64,000 bases of DNA from Felis catus (taxonomy: Eukaryota), in contig NC_058368.1 of the NCBI RefSeq assembly GCF_018350175.1, positions 84,012,001-84,076,000 of the forward strand, in the 5' to 3' direction. The notes under the pieces are model-generated. The model was not told the origin of the DNA. It did no database searches and saw only the letters and a list, made by a program, of their open reading frames with translations. The translations under genes were made by a program, and so were the position numbers. Of the stretch, positions 39,970 through 56,400 are shown in pieces (position 1 is the first letter of the stretch; each line of letters opens with the position of its first letter).

Positions 39970-41280
39970 TGTGAGGAATAAGCTTAGAAATTCCCTGGCT
40001 TACACCAATGGGTTAACAAGGCATAAAAAGTACAAAGTCATAGGATGCTCACACCCACGTTTGGGGTAAACAAGATTAGGTAAATAAGTATAGAGAAGGT
40101 GGGGTGTAATGCCCCCAATTTCGAATCCGAGAGACCACCAAGGAGCTGATACCGATGCAAACACACGAGGGTTTATTTGCAAGCTCGAGCTTGGACCCAA
40201 GTATACCCGACACAGTGGAGCAGGGACTTGGACCCCTAGGTTAAAAGTCATAGCAGTTTTATAGGGGCCAGTGGCCAATGAGATTGTAACACACACAGAA
40301 AGTTGCATAGTCATGTCAGTCCACACGCAGGTGGCCAATTGAATTACAATTTACCCTATAGTAGCTGTTTGAACTAGCCTATCACTCTGGTCAGAATTGG
40401 CACACAAGTTTGGCGGGCAAAAGGCGGCGTTTAAGAATTGGCACACAAGTTTGGCGGGCAAAAGGTGGGGTTTACATTCTTTGGCGGTTAGGGGTTCCGC
40501 ATTCCTATACAAGCCGGTTTCCAGTAAGGGTGTGCTCAGCAGCTTGACTAGAGGGGGGAGTGTCTTAAGCAATAAGTAGGTCATGTGGGGGTTATACATG
40601 AGATGGTGGGTGTAGCACAAAATGGAGTTAGTCTTGCTCTGCTTGTCCAGGGGTAAGGGATTTTTGTTAAATTCCTTGGGTCCCACAGGGGGCAGAGGCT
40701 CCCGTAGAGAACATATGTATATGAAATAAACAAGATTAGGTATTCAGGGTGGAAGTGCTCCCCAACTTAGTACTATAGCAGAAAGCTGTTTTCATAGGAA
40801 GGAAGGACCAAATTAGGTAAACAGGTGAATAGGACTATAGACCACTGTGCTGTGGGTGAAGCTGCCCAGAGCAGAGCTGCTTAGCAAAGAAAAGGTGCCT
40901 TATTAACCCTGAGGTTATTTTCTCTGTCTCATCCCCTAGGCTAGCTAAGATAAACAGAGTTGGTGCCTCATGTCTGTTGTAAACAACTTTCCGCCCAACT
41001 GTCCAGCACCAGGATTTTGTTTTGTATTAACCCAAACCCCTAACCCTGAATATCTTCAAGAACCCCTTTGCCTCATGTCCATGAGTTAATGTTAACAGAT
41101 TTATTGCCTCTTTGTGCATGTCCATCACCATGTTTGTAATCTTTCTGATACTAACAAATTGGACAAGGACCCTTATTCTGGGCTCTTGTCTTTTCCCAGA
41201 CATTAGCCATCTCTCATTTTTACTTCTGCATCCACTCTCTTGCTGGCCAAAAGAGAACATGAGATTTAGAGTCTATAACA
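39970..41280 (+). mobile_element. Outer solo LTR (~724 bp without the nested LTR); orientation tentative
   Basis: TG...CA termini. 6-bp TSD actgta (39964-39969 and 41281-41286). Removing it restores the OR frame MVTVSWIG. Confidence 0.88.
40105..40687 (-). mobile_element. Inner solo LTR, gammaretrovirus-like (583 bp)
   Basis: TG...CA termini and 4-bp TSD gggg. On the minus strand: TATAAAA (~40262-40256), AATAAA (~40177-40172) and a U3 tandem repeat. Confidence 0.88.
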
Positions 41281-44200
41281 ACTGTAACCATTTGCATACA
41301 GTCCCTGTGGTTCATAATGACTGCATACCTCAAAAGGTTGCACACAGTCACATAACAGTCATAGGCCATTAGGGTCAAGAGAATGCTTTCAGCACCCCCT
41401 AAAGAAGAAAAATATCTGAATTCTGCAGGCAAAACATGAGATAGTCTTCCTTCCAGAGAAAAAGTTGATTGCCATATTTGGAACAGTGCTGCTTATTAGG
41501 GTCAAGTCTAAAACAGAAAACTGGCTGATCACAGAATACATCAGGGTGTGGAGCCTTAAGTACATCCATATCCAGAGGAGCAGGATAAATTTCCCAGTGA
41601 GTGCAGTTAGGTAGATCAGGATGATACTGTAGATAAGGATACTGACATACTTCATATTGGGGAAGAATCAGAAGAGAATAAAATCTGCTATTAAAGTTTC
41701 TTTTCTTTTGTCCATATCTTTGACTGACATGACTGGCTGAACCAAAAAAGTTAAGGAAAATTAAAATAAGTAAAATGTCAAAAGCATTGCCTTTTTTTTT
41801 ATTATTGATTCACTATTGTTGCATTAATGTGATGCAACAAACAACTTCCCAAATCTCAGTGACATATGAAAATAAACACTTATTTTTCTTGTTCCTAGAC
41901 TGTTGTATAGCTGAAGCATTTTTCTTTTTTTTAATTTTATTTTTAATTTTTAAAATTTTACATCCAAATTAGTTAGCATACAGTGCAACAAAGATTCAGG
42001 AGTAGATTCCTTAATGCCCCTTACCCATTTAACCCATCACCCCTCCCACAACCCCTCCAGCAACCCTCAGTTTCTTCTCCATATTTATGAGTCTATTCTG
42101 TTTTGTCCCCCTCTCTGTTTTTATATTATTTTTGTTTCCCTTCCCTTATGTTCATCTTTTTCATCTCTTAAAGTCCTCCTATGAGTGAAGTCATATGATT
42201 TTTGTCTTTCTCTGACTGAATAATTTCACTAAGCGTAATACCCTCCAGTTCCATCCACGTAGTTGCAAATGGCAAGATTTCATTCTTTTTGATTGCTGAG
42301 TAATACTCCATTGTATATAGATACCACATCTTCTTTATCCATTCATCCATCGATGGACATTGGGCTCTTTCCATTCTTTGGCTATTGTTGATAGTGCTGC
42401 TATAAACATGGGGATGAATGTGTCCCTTCAAAAGAGCACACCTGTATCCCATAGATAAATGCCTAGTAGTGCAATTCCTGGGTCGTAGGGTAGTTCTATT
42501 TTTAGTTTTTTGAGGAACCTCCGTACTGTTTTCCAGAGTGGCTGCATCAGCTTGCATTCCCACCAACAACGCAAAAGAGATCCTCTGTCTCCACATCCTT
42601 GCCAATATCTGTTGTTGCCCGAGTTGTTAATGTTAGCCATTCTGACAGGTGTAAGGTGGTATCTCATTGTGGTTTTGATTTAGATTTCCCTGATGATGAG
42701 TGATGTTGAGCATTTTTTCATGTGTCAGTTGGCCATCTGGATGTCTTCCTTGGAGAAGTGTCTCTTCATGTCATTGGCCCATTTATTCACTGGATTATTT
42801 GTTTTTTGGGTGTTGAGTTTGATAGTTCTTTATAGATTTGGATACTAACCCTTTATCTGATATGTCATTTGCAAATATCTTCTCCCATTCTGTTGGCTGC
42901 CTTTTAGTTTTGCTAACTGTTTCCTTCACTGTGCAGAAGATTTTTATTTTTATGAGGTCCTAGTGGTTCATTTTTGGTTTTGTTTCTTTTGTCTCCAGAG
43001 ACGTGTTAAGAAGTTGCTGTGGCCAAGATCAAAGAGGTTTTTGCCTGCTTTCTCCTCAAAGATTTTGATGGCTTCCTATCTTACATTGAGGTCTTTCATC
43101 CATTTTGAGTTTATTTTTGTGTATGGTGTAAGAAAGTGGTCGAGGTTCATTCTTCTGCATGTCTCTGTCCAGTTTTCACAGCACAACTTGCTGAAGAGAC
43201 TGTCTTTATTCCATTGGATATTCTTTCCTGCTTTGTCCAACATTAGCTGTCCATACATTTGTGGGTCCATTTCTGGTTTCTCTATTCTGTTGCATTGATC
43301 TGAGTGTCTGTTCTTGTGCCAGTACCATTCTGTCTTGATAATTACAGCTTTGTAGTATAGCTTGAAGTCTAGGATTGTGATGCCTCCTGCTTTGGTTTTC
43401 TTTTCCAAGATTGCTTTGGCTGTTCAGGGTTTTTTCTGGTTCCATACAAATTTTGGGATTCTTTGTTCTATCTCTGTGAAGAATGCCGGTGTTACCCTGA
43501 TAGGGATCGCATTGAATATGTAGATTACTTGGGTAGTATCGACATTTTAACAATATTTGTTCTCCTTATCCAGGAGCATGGAACCTTTTTCCATTTTTTT
43601 TGTGTGTGTGTCTTCTTCAATTTGTTTCATAAGCTTTCTATAGCTTTCAGCGTATAGTTTTCCACCTCTTTGGTTAGATTTATTCCTAGGTGTTTTATGT
43701 TTTTTTGTGCAACTGTAAATGGGATCACTTCCTTGATTTCTCTTTCTGTCACTTCATTGTTGGTATATCAGAATGCAACCAATTTCTGTGCATTGATTTC
43801 ATATCCTGCACTTTGCTGAATTCATGAATCAATTCTAGCAGTTTTTGGTGGAATCATTTGGGTTTTCCATATACAGTATCATGTCATCTGCAAAGAGTGA
43901 AAGTTTGACCTCTTAGCCATTTGGATGACTATTATTTCACTGTGTTGTCTGATTACAGAGGCTACGACTTCCAATACTATGTTGAATAACAGTGGTGAGA
44001 GTGGATATCCCTGTCTTGTTTCTGACCTTAGGAGGAAAGCTCTCAGTTTTTCCCCATTGAGGATGATATTAGCGTTGGGTCATTCATATACAGCTTTTAT
44101 CATCTCCAGGTATACTCCTTCTATCCCTACTTTCTTGAGGGTTTTTATCAAGAAAGGATGGTGTATTTTGTCAAATGCTTTCTCTGCATCTATTGAGAGG

Positions 44201-46090
44201 ATCATATATTTCTTGTCCTTTCTTTTATTGATGTGAGGAATCACGTCAATTGTTTTGCGGATATTGAACCAGCCCAGCATCCCAGGTATAAATCCCACTT
44301 GGTCATGGTGAATAGTTTTTTTAATGTATTGTTGGATCCGGTTGGCTAATATTTTGTTGAGGATTTTTGCATCCATGCTCATCAGGGAAATTGGCCTATA
44401 GTTTGCCTTTTTAGTGGAATCTCTCTCTGGTTTTGGGGATCAATGTCATGCTGGCTTCATAGAAAGAGCTTGGAAGTTTTCCTTCCATTTCTATTTTTTG
44501 GAACAGTTTCAAGAGAATCAGTGTTACCTCTTCCTTAAATGTTTGGTAGAATTCCCCCGGAATGCCATCTGGCCCTGGACTCTTGTATTTTGGCAGATTT
44601 TTGATTACTAATTTGATTTCCTTCCTGGTTATGGGTCTCTTCAAATTTTCTTTCTTCCTGTTTCAGGTCTAATAGTGTATATGTTTCTAGGAATTTGTCC
44701 ATTTCTTCCAGATTACCCATTTTATTGGCATATATTTCTCTTACTATTCTCTTTATTTCTGCTGTGTTGGTTGTGGTCTCTCCTCTTTCATTCCTGATTT
44801 TATTTATTTGGGTCCTTTCTTTTTTCTTCTTGATCAAACTGACTAGTGGTTTATCAATTTTGTTAATTCTTTCAGAGAACCAGCTTCTGGTTTCATTGGT
44901 CTGTTCTGCATTGTTTTTTGTTGTTGTTGTTGTTGTTGTTTTGTTTTGTTTTGTTTTTTGGTTTCGATAGCATTAATTTCTGCTCTAATCTTTATTATTT
45001 CCTGTCTTCTGCTGGTTTCGGGTTTATTTGTTGTTTTTGTTGTTGTTATTGTTGTTTTCCAGATCCTTAAGGCATAAGGTTAGGTTGTGTATCTGAGACC
45101 TTTCTTCCTTCTTTAGGAAAGCCTGGATTGCTATACTTCCTCTTTTGACCACCTTTGCTGCATCCCAGAGGTTTTGGGTTGTGGTGTTATCATTTTCATT
45201 GACTTCCATATACTTTTTAATTTCCTCTTTAACTTCTTGGTTAGCCCATTCATACTTTAGTAGGATGTTCTTCAGTCTCCAAGAATTTGTTACCTTTCCA
45301 AATTTGTTCTTGTGGTTGATTTCGAGTTTTATAGCATTGTGGTCTGAAAATATGCACGGTATGATATCAGTCTTTTTGTACTTACTTAGGGCTGATTTGT
45401 GTCCCAGTATATGGTCTATTCTGGAGAACATTCCATGTGCACTGGAGAAGAATGTATATTCTGCTGCTTTAGGATGAAATGTTCTGAATGTATCTGTTAA
45501 GTCCATCTGGTCCAGTGTTTCATTCAAAGCCATTGTTTCCTTGTTGATTTCTTGAGTAAATGATCTGTCCATTGCTGTGAATTGGGATGTTGAAGTCTCC
45601 TACTATTATGATATTACTATTGATGAGTTATTTATGTTTGTGATTAATTGATTTATATTGTTTGGGTGCTCTCACATTTGGCGCATAAATGTTTAAAATG
45701 GTTAGGTCTTCTTGGTTGATACACCCTTTGATTATGATATAATGCCCTTCTGCATCTCTTGATACAGTGTTTATTTTAAAGTCTAGATTGTCTGATATAA
45801 GTATGGCTACTCTGGCTTTCTTTTGTGGACCATTAGCATGATAGATGGTTCTCCATTCCCTTATTTTCAATCTGAAGGTGTCTTTAAGTCTAAAGTGGGT
45901 CTATTGTAAACTGCATATAGGTGGATCTTGTTTTCTTATCCATTCTGTTACCCTATGTCTTTTGATTGGGCATTGAGTCCATTGACATTTAGAGTGAGTA
46001 CTGAAAGTTATGAATTTATAGCCATTATGATGCTTGTAGAGTTGGAGTTTCTGGTGGTGTTCTCTGGTCCTTTTTAATCTTTGTGGCTTT

Positions 46091-46181: not shown

Positions 46182-47229
46182 TATTCATCTTTTCTCCTTT
46201 CAGAGACTCCCACTTAAAATTTCTTGCAGGAGTGGTTTAGTGGTCACAAACTCCTTTAATTTTTGTTTGGGAAACTTTTTATCTCTCCTTCTATTTTGAA
46301 TGATACCCTCGTTGGATAAAGAATTCTTGGCTGCATATTTTTCTGATTCAGCACACTGAATATATCCCACCACTCCTTCATGGCCTGCCAAGTTTCTGTG
46401 GACAGGTCTGCTGCAAACCTGATCTGTCTTCCCTTGTAGGTTAGGGACTTTTTTTTTTCCCTTGCTGCTTTCATGATTCTCTCCTTGCCTAAGTATTTTG
46501 TGAATTTGAGTATGATATGCCTTGTTGATGGTCGGTTTTTGTTGGATCAAATGGGGGTCCTCTGTGCTTTCTGGATTTTGATGTCTGTGTCTTTCCCCAG
46601 GTTAGGAAAATTTTCTGCTGTGATTTTCTCACATAACCTTCTTCTATTTCTCTCTCTTCCTCTTCTGGGACCCCTATGATTCTGATGTTGTTCTTTTTTA
46701 ATGAGTCACTGATTTCTCTAATTTTTAAATCATGCTCTTTTGCCTTAATATCCCTCTTATATCCTGCTTCATTATTCTCTATAATTTTGTCCTCTATATC
46801 ACTGGTACTCTGTTCTGCCTCATCCATCCTTGCTGCTGCTGCATCCATCCATGATTGTAGCTCAGTTATAGCATTTTTCATTTCATTCTGGCTTTTTACT
46901 TCTTTTATCTCTGTAGAAAGGGATTCTAATCTATTTTTGACTCCAGCTAGTATTCTTATTATCGTGATTCTAAATTCTGGTTCATACATCTTGCTTGTAT
47001 CTGTGTTGGTTAAATCCCAGCTGTCATTTCTTTGTACTCTTTCTTTTGTGGTGAATTCCTTCGTTTTGCCATTTTGAAGGGAGAAAAGGAATTAATGAGG
47101 TAGAAAAATTAAAATTAAAAAATATGAAACTTAAAAAAATACTAAAATTTAAAAGTTAAACACACACATACCATACAAAAATCGAATAAATGATGCTCGA
47201 TCCTAGGTGTGTTTTGGTCTGGGTGTTGA

Positions 47230-47870
47230 AAGTGGTTTGACATATTAGAGAAAAAAGTGGGGGGGAAGGAAATCATTTGAGAATTTGAAAAAAAATGAAT
47301 ACACTGAAGTATACTAAAATGAGATGATGGGAGTAAAAAAGAATTTGAAGAAATATACACAAAAGTAAAGAATACAGTAGAAAAAAGATAAAGAAAAATA
47401 TTTTTAATAAAAATTAAAAATAAATATGATTTTTTTCTTTTTCTGTATTAAAGAAAAGAAACAAAAAAGGTTAAAAAAAGAAAAAAAGGAAATCGTTTGA
47501 AAATTAGAAAAAGTGAATACACTGTAGTAGGCTAAAATATGTGGAAATAGAATAGAATTTGAAAAAAATTACATAAAAGCAAGAAATATAGTAAAAAAAT
47601 AAAGAAAAATATTTTTAATATGAATTGAAAGTAAAAATGAAGTTTTTCCTTTTTGCATTCAAGAAAAAGAAAAGAAAAAGAAAAAAAAGAAAGAAAAAAA
47701 GGAAATTGTTTAAAAATTTGAAAAGGTGAAAACACTGAAGTAGACTAAAATAAAATGATGGAATTAAAATAGAATTTGAAAATAATTACACAAAAGAAAA
47801 GTTATAGTAATAAAAATTAAAGAAAATATTTTTAATAAAAATTGAAAATAAAAATGATTTTTTTCTCTTT
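47230..47870 (-). repeat. ~214-bp AT-rich tandem repeat (~3 units) in the L1 5'UTR
   Basis: Recurring acactgaagtagactaaaat...agaatttgaa...agaaaatatttttaata. Confidence 0.85.
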
Positions 47871-48727
47871 CTGCTGAATTCTGTGGTTCTGGTTGTGCAG
47901 ATTGCTGTGTTCTCCAATAAGTTTTCTAGGTGTGTAGGAATGCTTAGTGTTGGTCTGGCTGTATTTCACAAAAACTTCCATGCTGTTCCACCATCTTGAC
48001 TCTTCCGTGAAGCATTATTCTGTAGGCTGTAGTTCAGGTACAGGTTGAATCCACATAGGTCTCATTCTGTGATCTGTAGCTATCTAGAACTTGCTCTTCA
48101 CATGGAGCATGGCAGAAGCACAAAGGGACTGATAATAACTATGTGATTCCTCTTAAAGCCTGAGCTCATGCTGACTCTATTACTGTCACCTACATTCAGT
48201 TGATTAAAACAAGTCATACATGAAATCCATCATCAATGTGGTGTGGAAGAAAACTCCACTCACAATGAACCATAACAAGTTTGGGGAAGGAAGGATTTGA
48301 AAGCAACTAAAATGATATTACTATGATTCTCAAAACTTGTAATGCTACACTCTTTAAATTCTTGATGAGTTTTCAAATATTTTATGTTTTGGTTTCTTAC
48401 TATTCTATTTAATGTGATCCATTAGGCACCATGAGAACTGAGTTTCTTGTCACCACAAATAAATTATAATGGCCAATAACTTGAGGTCATTTGTAGCCAC
48501 TGAATATATACTTGGCTAGACATACATTAGGTAAACACATAAGCTCTTTTTACATAGGGACTTCTGCCTGTGAATCAGGTTATCTATATCCAAGAAAATT
48601 AACCAGAGATGGAAGAGAAATACAGTGTAATAAATCCATGTTCCCTGTATAGAAGTGGAAACTGGGAAAACATTTTCTTTAAAAGAACACATTAAATGAA
48701 GATTTAACTAAAATTGTCAGTTTTGGT

Positions 48728-51700
48728 GAAAGCTAAATGGTGAGGTACTAGGAAGTCACGAGTCCCATCTTGTCCCTCAAACACAATTAAATATCAAATC
48801 ATTCTGAATACTCCAGAAATCAGCATGAAGACTGAAAGAACAAACTCCACAACTAAAGGGAAAGAACCCACATCTAAGAAGGTAGGAAGTGTGGAGATAT
48901 AGTTTGGGGGAGAAATAGATTGGGGGTGTTGTAGAGAGGAAGGAGTCATGGTCATGGAGAAAGGCCAGAGAGAAAGGAGCACACAGAGGAATGCACAAGG
49001 AGAATAGTTCCCCAAAATTATTTCTTGGAAACATGAAAAAGGTGTTTTTTTGTTTTTGTTTTTGTTTTTGTTTTTTTTTACTTTTTGCAACAAGAAAGTT
49101 TAATGACTGGAATTCTAAAGTTCAACAGGTTCATCTGGGATATAGTCCTAAGATTGCTACCCTGCTCTTGAAGAGAAGGCAGGCAAACAAGCTGGGGGCA
49201 GTCTGGAAACAATGGTCTAAAGAATTCCTGGGACACACGAGAAAGATATTGTTAGCTCTTCTTGGAATGTGTTCCTGACAGGCAGTGTTCACAGAGATGC
49301 CTCTCTAGGGACAAAGGAGCCAGCTGGTGTCACTTCTATCCCCCATCCCTCAGCATAAATGCAGAGCCACCTGTGGGAAGCATCTAACCCAGACACTAGT
49401 TGCCTAATCTTCTTACTCCAAGTCCCACACCCCTGCATTGTGCTGTGACTGCATTTGTCAATCAAACCTGTCTCAGACCACTGCAGTACCTCCCTCAGAA
49501 GACCAGAACCAGCCCTTGCACACACTACACACCTAAAGCCTGGAGTTTTAAAAGTCAGCAGGCTTGGCTAGGATGGAGCCTGTAGGGTAATGTGCTTCTC
49601 CTGGAAAGAAGGCAGGCAAACAACCCAGAAGCAGACAGTAGTGTTGAAACAGCAAACAAAAACACCTGGGACACAGAGAAGGAAGATTATTTGCTCCTCT
49701 TGGAGTACTTCTCTTAGGCACTATGAACAGAGATGCCTCTCTAGGGACAAGGGAAATGGCTGGCACTATTTCCCTCCCCCAGCCTTCAGCCTAAACACAG
49801 AGCAATCTTCAGTAAGCAGCACAGTATGAACACTAGCTGCCTAGCCTGCTTATACTATGATCCACACCACTACACATTGGCATTACTGCCGTATAGATCA
49901 AGCTTGCATCAGTCCCAGCAAGGTACCATCAGAAATGCCTGCCTACACATTATCTACCATCCAGAGAGTTCTGCAGGGCTTCATTTCTAGTGGAAGCAGT
50001 ATCAAGTCGCATTTAACAAGCAGACCAGAGCACATCTAGATAAAATCATTGGTTTGTGGCCAGGGCTAACACTGCTTAAGGCAGGCAAGGAAAGCCTCTG
50101 CAGACAACTGGCCTGAAGGATAGAGCAGCCAAAACACCACAGCAGAGTGCACACAGCACTCACTAGAGATACTCCCTGAAGAACAGGGCCCCAGACATTA
50201 TATGACCTCTTATTCATAAAGGCATTGCTCTCAGGATAAGGAAAATAACAGGCTTTTCTAATACACATGAGAAGGCAGAGACTTAGAAAAAATGTCAAGA
50301 TGGAGGAATTCATCCCAAATTAAAGAACAAGATAAGGTCAAGGCCAGAATTCAAAGTAAAACAGATATTAAGTAATATGCCTGATGGAGATTGTAGAGCA
50401 ACAATCATAAGGTTATTAGCTCTGCTTGAGAAAAGAATAGAAGACTAATGGGAGGCCTTTGTCACAGAAATAAAAGAAGAAACAATAAGAAAAGAAAAAT
50501 ACAATAACTGACATTTTAAACATACTTCTTGCAATGAACACAAGATGGAAAAAACAGAGGAACGAATGAGGGATATAGAAAAAAAAATAATGGGAAATAA
50601 TGAAGCTGAACAAAAGAAACAAAGAATTATGGAATACGAGAACAGGCTTGGGGAATTCATTGACTCCATCAAATGTAATAACATTTGTATGATACAAGTC
50701 CCAGAAGAAGAGAGAGAAAAGGGGAAGAAAATTTATTTGAGGAAATAATAGCTGAAAACGCCCCTGATCTGGGAAAGGGGAGACATCCAGATAACCAGAT
50801 CCAGGAAGGAAAGAAAACTCCCATCAAAATTAACAAAAGCAGGCCAACACCAAGACATAGCATAGTAAAATTTGCAAAACAGAGAGATAAGGAAAGAATC
50901 CTGAAAGCAGCAAAGGAAAAGAAAACCATAACCTACAAGGGAAGACAAATAAGGTTAGAAACTTGTCAGGCCAGAATAGAGTGGCAGGATATATTCAACA
51001 TGATGAATGGGAGAAATATGCAGCCAAGAATATGTCATTCAAAATAGAAAGAGAGATAAAGAGTTTTCCAGACAAACAAAAACTAAAGTAGCTTATCACC
51101 TGCTACCCCAGCCCTGAAAGAAATTTTAAAGGGAATTCTGAGTGGGAAAGAAAGACAAAAAGCAGCAAAGGTCATAAAGGAAAAGAGAAAATCTTCAGAA
51201 ACAAGGACAAAACAAGTAATAAAATGGCACTTAGTTCATATATTTAAATAATTACTCTGAATGTAAATAGACTTAATGCTCCAGTCAAAATACATAGGGG
51301 TCATAATGGATTAAAAAACAAAACTCATCTATGTGCTGCCTACAAGAGACTCATATTAGACATAAAGACACATGCAGATTGAAAGTGAGGAGATAGAGAA
51401 CGACTTATCATGCAAATGCACATCAGAAGAAAGCCAGAGTAGCAATATTTATATCAAACTAGATCTTACACCAAATGCTGTAACAAGAATTGAAGAAGGG
51501 CACTATAACATAATAAAGGTGTCGATCCAACAAAGTCTAAAAATTATGAATACTTATGCCTCTCATTGTAAATACCTATGTCTCCAACATGGGAACACCT
51601 GAATATATAAAACAATAACAAACATTATGGAACTCAATAATAATAATACAATAATAGCAGAGGAATTTAGCACCGCACTTACATCAATGAAGAGATTATC

Positions 51701-53409: not shown

Positions 53410-56400
53410 GAAGGCACAGGGCTCTTTGCAAGATGGTGGCTTAGGAGGACGCTGGGCTCACCGCACGTCCTGCTGATCACTTAGATTCCACCTACACCTG
53501 CCTAAATAACCCAGAAAACCGCCAGAGGATTAGCAGAACGGAGTCGCCCGAGCCAAATGCAGACGAGAGGCCCACGGAAGAGGGTAGGAAGGGCGGCGAG
53601 GCGGTGTGCGCTCCACGGACTGGCGGGAGGGAGCCGGGGCGGCGGGCGGCTCGCCGGCCAGCAGAGCCCCCGAGTCTGGCTTGCAAAAGCAGAGGGGCCT
53701 GACGGACTGTGTTCCGACAACAAGCGCGACTTAGCGTCTGGGAGGTCATAAGTTAACAGCTCTGCTCAGAAAGCGGGAAGGCTGGAGGACAAAGGGAGGG
53801 AGAGCTGCTGAGCCCCCGGACAACAGAGCTAAGTTTGGTGGGGAACAAAGGCGCTCGCCAGTGCCATCTCCCCCGCCCATCCCCCAGCCAAAATCCCAAA
53901 GAGAACCAGTTCCTGCCAGGGAACTTGCTCGCCCCGCGCAAACACCCAACTCTGTGCTTCTGCGGAGCCAAACCTCCGGCAGCGGATCTGACTCCCTCCC
54001 CCTGCCACAGGGCCCCTCCTGAAGTGGATCACCTAAGGAGAAGCAATCTAAGCCTGCCCCTCCTGCCCCTGTGCACCTTGCCTACCCACCCCAGCTAATA
54101 CACCAGATCCCCAGCATCACAAGCCTGGCAGTGTGCAAGTAGCCCAAACGGGCCACACCACCCCACAGTGAATCCCGCCCCTAGGAGAGGGGAAGAGAAG
54201 GCACACAACAGTCTGACTGTGGCCCCAGCGGTGGGCTGGGGGCAGACATCAGGTCTGACTGCGGCCCCGCCCACCAACTCCAGTTATACACCACAGCACA
54301 GGGGAAGTGCCCTGCAGGTCCTCACCACGCCAGGGACTATCCAAAATGACCAAGCGGAAGAATACCCCTCAGAAGAATCTCCAGGAAATAACAACAGCTA
54401 TTGGGCTCATCAAAAACGATTTAAATAATATAACAGAAAGTGAATTTAGAATAATAGTCATAAAATTAATCGCTGGGCTTGAAAACAGTATACAGGACAG
54501 CAGAGAATCTCTTGCTACAGAGATCAAGGGACTAAGGAACAGTCACGAGGAGCTGAAAAACGCTTTAAACGAAATGCATAACAAAATGGAAACCACCACA
54601 GCTCGGCTTGAAGAGGCAGAGGAGAGAATAGGTGAACTAGAAGATAAAGTTATGGAAAAAGAGGAAGCTGAGAAAAAGAGAGATAAAAAAATACTGGAGT
54701 ATGAGGGGAAAATTAGAGAACTGATACACTAAAAAGAAATAATATACGCATAATTGGTATCCCAGAGGAGGAAGAGAGAGGGAAAGGTGCTGAAGGGGTA
54801 CTTGAAGAAATAATAGCTGAGAACTTCCCTGAACTGGGGAAGGAAAAAGGCATTGAAATCCAAGAGGCACAGAGAACTCCCTTCAGACGTAACTTGAATC
54901 GATATTCTGCAAGACATATCATAGTGAAACTGGCAAAATACAAGGATAAAGAGAAAATTCTGAAAGCAGCAAGGGGTAAACGAGCCCTCACATATAAAGG
55001 GAGACCTATAAGACTCGTGACTGATCTCTCTTTTGAAACTTGGCAGGCCAGAAAGAATTGGCACGAGATTTTCAGGGTGCTAGACAGAAGAAATATGCAG
55101 CCAAGAATCCTTTATCCAGCAAGTGTGTCATTTAGAATAGAAGGAGAGATAAAGGTCTTCCCAAACAAACAAAAACTGAAGGAATTTGTCACCACTAAAC
55201 CAGCCCTACAAGAGATCCTAAGGGGGACCCTGTGAGACAAAGTCCCAGAGACATCACTACAAGCATAAAACATACAGACATCACAATGACTCTAAACCCG
55301 TATCTTTCTATAATAACACTGAATGTAAATGGATTAAATGCGCCAACCAAAGACATAGGGTATCAGAATGGATAAAAAAACAAGAACCATCTATTTTCTG
55401 TCTACAAGAGACTCATTTTAGACCTGAGGACACGTTTAGATTGAGAGTGAGGGGATGGAGAACTATTTATCATGCGACTGGAAGCCAAAAGAAAGCTGGA
55501 GTAGCCACACTTATATCAGACAAACTAGACTTTAAATTAAAGGCTGTAACAAGAGATGAAGAAGGACATTATATAATAGTTACAGGGTCTATCCATCAGG
55601 AAGAGCTAACAATTATAAATGTCTATGTGCCGAATACCAGAGCCCCCAAATATATAAAACAATTACTCATAAACATAAGCAACCTTATTGATAAGAATGT
55701 GGTAATTGCAGGGGACTTCAACACCGCACTTACAGAAAAGGATAGATCATCTAGACACACGGTCAATAAAGAAACAAGGGCCCTGAATGAGACATTGGAT
55801 CAGATGGACTTGACAGATATATTTAGAACTCTACATCCCAAAGCAACAGAATATACTTTCTTCTCGAGTGCACATGGAACATTCTCCAAGATAGATCATA
55901 TACTGGGTCACAAAACAGCCCTTCATAAGTTTACAAGAATTGAAATTATACCATGCATACTTTCAGACCACAATGCTATGAAACTTGAAATCAACCACAG
56001 AAAAAAGTCTGGAAAACCTCCAAAGGCATGGAGGTTAAAGAACACCCTACTAACGAATGAGTGGGTCAACCAGGCAATTAGAGAAGAAATTAAAAAATAT
56101 ATGGAAGCAAACTAAAATGAAAATACAACAATCCAAACGCTTTGGGACGCAGCGAAGGCAGTCCTGAGAGGAAAATACATTGCAATCCAGGCCTATCTCA
56201 AGAAACAAGAAAAATCCCAAATACAAAATCTAACAGCACACCTAAAGGAAATAGAAGGAGAACAGCAAAGACAGCCTAAACCCAGCAGAAGAAGAGAAAT
56301 AATAAATATAGAGCAGAAATAAACAATATAGAATCTAAAAAAACTGTAGAGCAGATCAACAAAACCAAGAGTTGGTTTTTTGAAAAAATAAACAAAATTG

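Follow-up and report, generated by a model that had tools for sequence, protein, structure and literature searches.

A Felid LINE-1 Copy Very Probably Inserted from a 5'UTR-Spliced RNA, and Its Dispersed Counterparts

Introduction

How did a LINE-1 (L1) copy in the cat genome come to have the first part of its 5'UTR joined directly to an AT-rich tandem repeat? The copy lies in a stretch of 64,000 nucleotides from Felis catus (contig NC_058368.1, positions 84,012,001 to 84,076,000), called here the window. A sequence-only reading had proposed that it was retrotransposed from an RNA whose 5'UTR had been spliced, at an acceptor supplied by the element's own repeat. Such copies are known in humans as SpIREs (spliced integrated retrotransposed elements). 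They number 131 of 6,609 (~2%), of which 120 are spliced within the UTR and 11 from the UTR into ORF1 (Larson et al. 2018, PMC5860796). The human intra-UTR spliced RNA moves once in cis, and the UTR/ORF1 RNA needs ORF1p in trans (PMC5860796).

The analysis described below makes it very likely that the felid copy, which lacks a ~1.18-kb segment running from GT to AG, was inserted from an RNA spliced from a donor in its 5'UTR to the first CAG of the array.

The Element at the Locus

The features of the element are collected in Table 1. It is a LINE-1: homology to ORF1p and ORF2p occurs in order and is followed by an A-rich tail, and the whole is enclosed by a target site duplication (TSD). The open stretches match LINE-1 ORF1p (E 9e-6) and ORF2p (E 3e-51) among PDB sequences, and a Pfam search with three fragments of the element gave 0 families. 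The TSD and A-tail, hallmarks of target-primed insertion, bear out the earlier description of a TSD-bounded L1.

Table 1. Positions, in window coordinates, of the L1 element and of a second intron discussed in the text
Feature	Position	Strand	Remark
Full L1 element, 6.08 kb	48007 to ~41926	minus	TSD-flanked, A-rich tail, broken ORF1 and ORF2
5' TSD, 14 bp	48008..48021	minus	one mismatch against 41912-41925
5'UTR first exon, retained, 137 nt	47871..48007	minus	ends ...aattcagcag, at splice donor position (CAG|)
Junction	47870..47871	minus	GC-rich ~1.18 kb missing relative to intact copies (median 1,182, range 1,083-1,290)
Repeat unit 1, begins at used acceptor	47653..47870	minus	3' end is the unit-2 pyrimidine tract with decayed acceptor CAA
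Repeat unit 2	47443..47652	minus	3' end is the unit-3 pyrimidine tract with CAG (AG at 47444-47443), unused in this copy
Repeat unit 3, partial	47266..47442	minus	tandem array
ORF1, broken	46190..47072, end approximate	minus	frameshift near codon 18
ORF1 AAG, acceptor of sister 5'UTR/ORF1 class	47061-47059	minus	inside broken ORF1
ORF2, fragmented	42168..46025	minus	LINE-1 protein match
3'UTR and A-rich tail	41926..42167	minus	read from sequence
3' TSD	41912..41925	minus	partner of 48008-48021
GT...CAG intron of neighbouring younger-lineage L1	53584..54010, 427 nt	plus	absent in ~60 genomic copies of the lineage

The first exon abuts an array with a period of 217 and 2.8 copies (47266-47874), and the sequence past the exon, from 47870 onward, reads aaagagaaaaaaatc. 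The extent of the exon, its join to the AT-rich array and the AG at the homologous point of a later unit are all as the sequence-only reading had placed them. At least half of the sampled words of 47760-48500 were found in each of 16 public sequencing runs, which argues against a local assembly artefact.

The Missing Segment in Intact Relatives

Intact relatives can be found by searching the genome with the 15 nt at the end of the exon. This query has G as its next base at 1,035 genomic places, and 75 further listed places have a different base there. From the first 60 G-following places listed, on contig C1, 54 copies were fetched. All 54 have GT after the exon, the search pattern having left the T free, and 51 read CAG|GTA. 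The donor of the intact elements is CAG|GTAYGY at about +157. The exon is 155-160 nt long in these relatives and shorter in the window copy because the latter lost ~20 nt internally.

The first repeat unit was locatable in 46 intact copies, at the distance downstream that Table 1 gives. The first acceptor after the pyrimidine tract is CAG in 39 of them, TAG in three and something else, or decayed, in four, so that 42 of 46 have YAG; the tract itself is 87% pyrimidine in 20 parents with three units. Compared with one intact copy, the junction removes precisely GT...CAG, a segment of 1,184 nt. Thus the missing segment starts with GT and ends with AG, and the acceptor is supplied by the repeat unit, both as the sequence-only reading had supposed. 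The removed part has a GC content of 54% and up to 57 CpG per copy, against a GC content of 28% for the 5' part that is kept.

In intact elements a pyrimidine tract and CAG open each ~217-nt unit. The number of units in intact members is one, two or three; where there is only one, it is often a 5'/3' hybrid between the first and the last. Recombination therefore lengthens and shortens the array without any part being played by splicing.

Recurrence of the Junction

Because the cut has a CAG on either side, a 3-nt overlap, a single locus cannot decide between splicing and deletion. Repair or template switching between the two CAG triplets could have removed the segment from the DNA, either as the element was inserted or later, and old copies of this kind often have internal deletions that occur only once. 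Evidence against such an origin is provided by observing the same junction elsewhere. A 28-nt junction sequence has 14 exact genomic matches, compared with 0 for a reversed control, so the junction is not a chance match. Near-exactly, it is present at 25 dispersed loci: 23 of the 75 rows not followed by G, spread over 12 contigs and with differing flanks, and two more from a relaxed search. Recurrence at many loci with different flanks, together with the GT and the ~1.18 kb that intervenes in intact copies, bears out the SpIRE-like origin first proposed.

The donor of the first exon joins three acceptors: the repeat CAG, an AAG in ORF1 and, in one copy, a TAG just upstream of the array. Within 1.5 kb downstream, each copy offers ~36 CAG, 12 GCAG, 5 AGCAG and 2 CAGCAG as microhomologies. 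Despite this plenty, a single site accounts for 23 of 24 intra-UTR junctions, and the longer microhomologies to the exon end are unused. The same left end also meets acceptors of which two share only AG or AGG with it. By comparison, about ten one-off internal deletions among those visible have unique ends that are not GT-AG. For the junction class as a whole, loss at the DNA level is largely refuted, and for the window copy it is very unlikely.

A target site duplication was recovered in seven of 14 intra-UTR (class-A) copies with both ends covered, and in the other seven it was not; the same numbers hold for the class joined to ORF1 (class B). Among ~1,090 5' ends, intra-UTR copies make up ~2.1% and UTR/ORF1 copies ~1.6%, for a total of ~42 (~4%). 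All junction counts are lower bounds, because the patterns were exact-match.

Splicing of the first exon to host exons was considered for 13 odd rows. When fetched, none had the L1 exon; they matched by chance and do not enter the counts. In a copy at C1:83827496, a second donor-like site 47 nt downstream is joined to the ORF1 AAG acceptor. This copy is one of the 54 fetched with GT, a set in which more may hide.

Many Events or One Master

Identical junctions could also have been inherited. If one spliced master had been active, all junction copies would descend from it and form a short-leader L1 subfamily; the junctions are indeed numerous and identical, and the copies retain the first exon along with the entire AT-rich array. 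A tree was built from 4,747 columns of ORF1, ORF2 and the 3'UTR for 75 of 101 copies, leaving out copies with fewer than 2,000 aligned bases and five duplicates. It is star-like, with 12 of 72 branches starred. Spliced copies are scattered over it: 14 changes are needed for 14 class-A rows and 15 for 16 class-B rows. Distances are the same, 0.084, between class-A copies, between intact copies and between the two groups. A single clade of class-A rows was rejected (p-AU 1e-12) in a test of 12 of the 14 class-A rows with 24 intact rows, 10 physical neighbours having been dropped.

The spliced copies also span the gradient from old to young and have no convincing private allele; among the 4,747 columns, only one is weakly enriched (5 of 10 spliced against 2 of 41). 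Moreover, junction copies have one, two or three units, like intact copies. Since the junction copies are not one clade, splicing recurred and there was no spliced master lineage. A single master is refuted as an account of the class, and as the origin of the window copy it is highly improbable. A few small sub-lineages are possible, because a star-like tree with changes shared among neighbours could hide them.

Alternatively, gene conversion with a spliced copy or a cDNA as template could have brought the junction into an L1 already present at the locus. Neighbouring L1s share changes: for the 15 pairs separated by less than 0.3 Mb the distance residual is -0.013, compared with ~0 for others, and the window copy pairs on the tree with an intact copy 53 kb away. 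That neighbour is itself unspliced, however, and the 5' end of the window copy shows no sign of being younger than its body. The origin of the junction would still require RNA splicing. Of all the explanations this is the least credible.

Most of the starred small groups on the tree are physical neighbours on one contig, and pairs less than 0.3 Mb apart are closer than expected. This suggests local gene conversion between old L1s, with regional mutation bias as an alternative.

The end branches are ~0.05 long. At a neutral substitution rate, this suggests a rough age of ~15-25 million years, and the spliced copies would be a fossil record of germline RNA processing at that time.

Choice of Acceptor

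The sequence-only reading had described the tandem repeat as a ladder of alternative acceptors. This part of the proposal, the source of the finding's unusualness, did not hold. Twelve diagnostic columns separate units 1, 2 and 3, correctly classing 59 of 60 in leave-one-out trials. With this classifier, 21 of 23 junctions are of first-unit type, none of second-unit type and two last-unit-like. The two last-unit-like junctions prove nothing, because four of 15 single-unit parents look likewise. A relaxed pattern able to show second-unit junctions found 0 of 9.

The window copy is classed as first-unit type with posterior 1.0. It also keeps all three units, and therefore the acceptor used was the first one. 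The second acceptor has decayed to CAA in this copy. The pyrimidine tracts of distal units are no weaker (93-94% pyrimidine, against 87% for the first), so proximity is the likely reason for first-unit use.

An earlier classing by whole-unit alignment score (split 7, 12, 4) was rejected. It could not separate units 1 and 2, and called the first unit of the window copy '2' despite two units after it.

A Sister Class Spliced into ORF1

In 21 of 65 rows, and in two further rows, the donor of the first exon is joined to an AAG in codon 5 of ORF1. Six of these 23 share flanks and are counted as one insertion, which gives 18 independent insertions. Most of the copies are full-bodied. The splice removes the ORF1 start codon and only 14 nt of ORF1, and in 13 of the 18 copies the next in-frame methionine lies near codon 29. 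In none of the 18 is an ATG of the first exon fused in frame to ORF1; all frames of that exon close within 68 codons.

The ORF1 and intra-UTR classes stand at 18 to 24 here and at 11 to 120 in humans (Fisher p=2e-6, with search methods that differ). The ORF1 class is thus proportionally about tenfold commoner than its human counterpart, subject to the same difference in search methods. The excess could reflect a working short ORF1p, a greater supply in trans or merely a more-used acceptor. Copies with a truncated ORF1 in such excess offer a test of the strictness of cis-preference beyond humans.

Proposed Pathway

The donor and the acceptors that open each unit are present in intact elements, as described above. 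A few percent of their transcripts would be spliced, nearly always to the nearest acceptor or to the AAG in ORF1 codon 5. The intra-UTR product should still encode both proteins and, judging from the human case, retrotranspose once in cis. Cis retrotransposition yields a full-bodied copy with an A-tail and a TSD, as is seen at the locus. Having lost the CpG-rich segment, such a copy would probably be a poor source of further copies. Its poor-source status may explain why spliced copies are scattered over the history of the lineage and form no clade.

A spliceosomal origin, a single round of retrotransposition in cis and a loss of promoter strength are what we infer for these copies. Promoter loss was measured for human SpIREs (PMC5860796); for the felid copies it is suggested by base composition.

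Splicing in a Younger L1 Lineage

The sequence-only reading had also pointed to donor-like sites in other L1 5' ends of the window. The sites are present, with GT at 48883-48884 and 53584-53585, and the second proved to be in use: about 60 copies of a younger lineage are spliced there, compared with 1,951 genomic places at which the GT is kept. The window copy of this lineage lies at 53433. Its donor is joined to one main CAG ~429 nt downstream in 61 or 62 of 69 rows, some of which are neighbouring duplicates. Rarer junctions use YAG sites in the 5'UTR, ORF1 and ORF2. In three copies the donor is joined to the reverse-transcriptase region of ORF2, across a 3.8-kb intron. Four junctions (three at one site, one at a second) have no AG ahead of them in the visible parents. 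On the tree, spliced copies are intermixed with intact ones (11 changes, against 13.9 when shuffled).

A donor one base earlier was also tried as a candidate. Among 41 rows there was a single junction, which is compatible with the GT donor if one substitution is allowed.

RNA reads skipping the younger GT..AG intron numbered 10 in one run, one in a second and none in two others. In eight of the 10 reads of the first run, the first mate lies on the plus strand, which is antisense if the library is stranded. All 11 could derive from already spliced genomic copies.

The window element and the younger L1s present the same phenomenon in the same genome, and differ in that the window element belongs to an older lineage with another intron, other acceptors and a repeat array. 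In two felid L1 lineages with different leaders, spliced copies occur at 3-4% of full-length 5' ends.

A five-sequence alignment brings the donors of three lineages into register, at low identity (mean over columns 63%, within hand-chosen bounds). A donor kept at an aligned place in carnivore leaders of divergent sequence suggests that the donor matters in its own right. Human work had raised the question of why a splice donor that harms L1 is retained, and explained it by overlap with a RUNX3 site (PMC5860796); the question can now be tested by comparison. One reading, which we hold as rather doubtful, is that a strong 5' splice site 100-160 nt from the start might be a working part of the L1 promoter region. 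Its retention in three carnivore 5'UTR types that have diverged, and its presence in the primate UTR, which is unrelated to them, would reflect a contribution of U1 binding to the making of full-length L1 RNA, with SpIREs as the price. On the same doubtful footing, the ORF1 splice would be tolerated about ten times better here than in humans, pointing to an ORF1p functional without its first 28 residues or to efficient sharing of ORF1p in trans.

The third of these lineages is represented in the window at 48715-48905, the 5' end of an older L1 type whose GT at 48883 takes the same place in the alignment as the donors of the two other lineages.

A Shared Non-L1 Leader in Younger L1s

At least 33 dispersed L1s of the younger lineage, or ~40 places by another count, start with a common non-L1 leader of 200-480 nt. 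The leader occurs in several exon-skipping isoforms, which are joined at a point 13-30 nt upstream of the L1 start. The sequence flanking the leader upstream is different from copy to copy, apart from one similar pair among 29. The family looks like the offspring of one source L1 transcribed from a host promoter. The source locus was not among 46 listed matches, for which 40 of 308 candidates were scored.

The internal 5'UTR intron is missing in nine of 30 fetched leader copies, compared with ~3% overall (p=1e-7). Exon definition could account for this excess. The nine copies cluster on the tree (four changes, against 8.5 when shuffled), so a source allele already without the intron is also possible.

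The closest parallel is provided by the human RAP1GDS1/L1PA2 chimeric insertions, described as two independent insertions with four copies (bioRxiv 10.1101/2025.02.02.635956). There too, host exons were spliced to an acceptor just upstream of the L1 and then retrotransposed. The human case comprises two insertions, whereas the felid family has at least 33 copies and several leader isoforms.

Relation to Human SpIREs

SpIREs outside primates are what a specialist would expect. The felid copies are of this known kind and extend it to another order of mammals and another L1 lineage, and SpIRE formation is thus not a primate peculiarity. Literature searches, with subscription journals and Repbase/Dfam notes outside their coverage, found no report of a carnivore SpIRE. 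A term search of a 2026 canine retrotransposon review gave 0 matches for 'SpIRE' or 'felid' (PMC13756887).

Like SpIRE97/622 and SpIRE97/790, the felid intra-UTR copies combine one donor near the 5' end with several acceptors, and have a TSD and an A-tail (PMC5860796). In both species, spliced copies are a small share of full-length copies (~2% in humans, ~4% here) and arise over successive subfamilies (PMC5860796). The carnivore 5'UTR is unrelated, however, and its donor lies at about +157, compared with +97 in humans (PMC5860796). The intron is ~1.18 kb rather than 524 nt, and the felid acceptor is within a tandem unit (PMC5860796).

The ORF1 class resembles SpIRE97/976 in lacking the ORF1 start, with the next methionine at about codon 29 compared with codon 35 in humans (PMC5860796). 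Unlike SpIRE97/976, it loses 14 nt of ORF1 rather than 66 nt. Its frequency also comes close to that of the intra-UTR class, even though the human RNA depended for its movement on ORF1p supplied in trans (PMC5860796). What surprises is how frequent this ORF1 class is, that the donor persists across leaders, and that at least 33 L1s share a spliced host leader.

Neighbouring Sequence

Beyond the 3' TSD, at ~41290-41660 on the minus strand, lies a fragment that resembles an olfactory-receptor pseudogene in its motifs. It is interrupted by an LTR-like stretch at ~40100-41290, which contains a 41-bp tandem duplication at 40393-40474.
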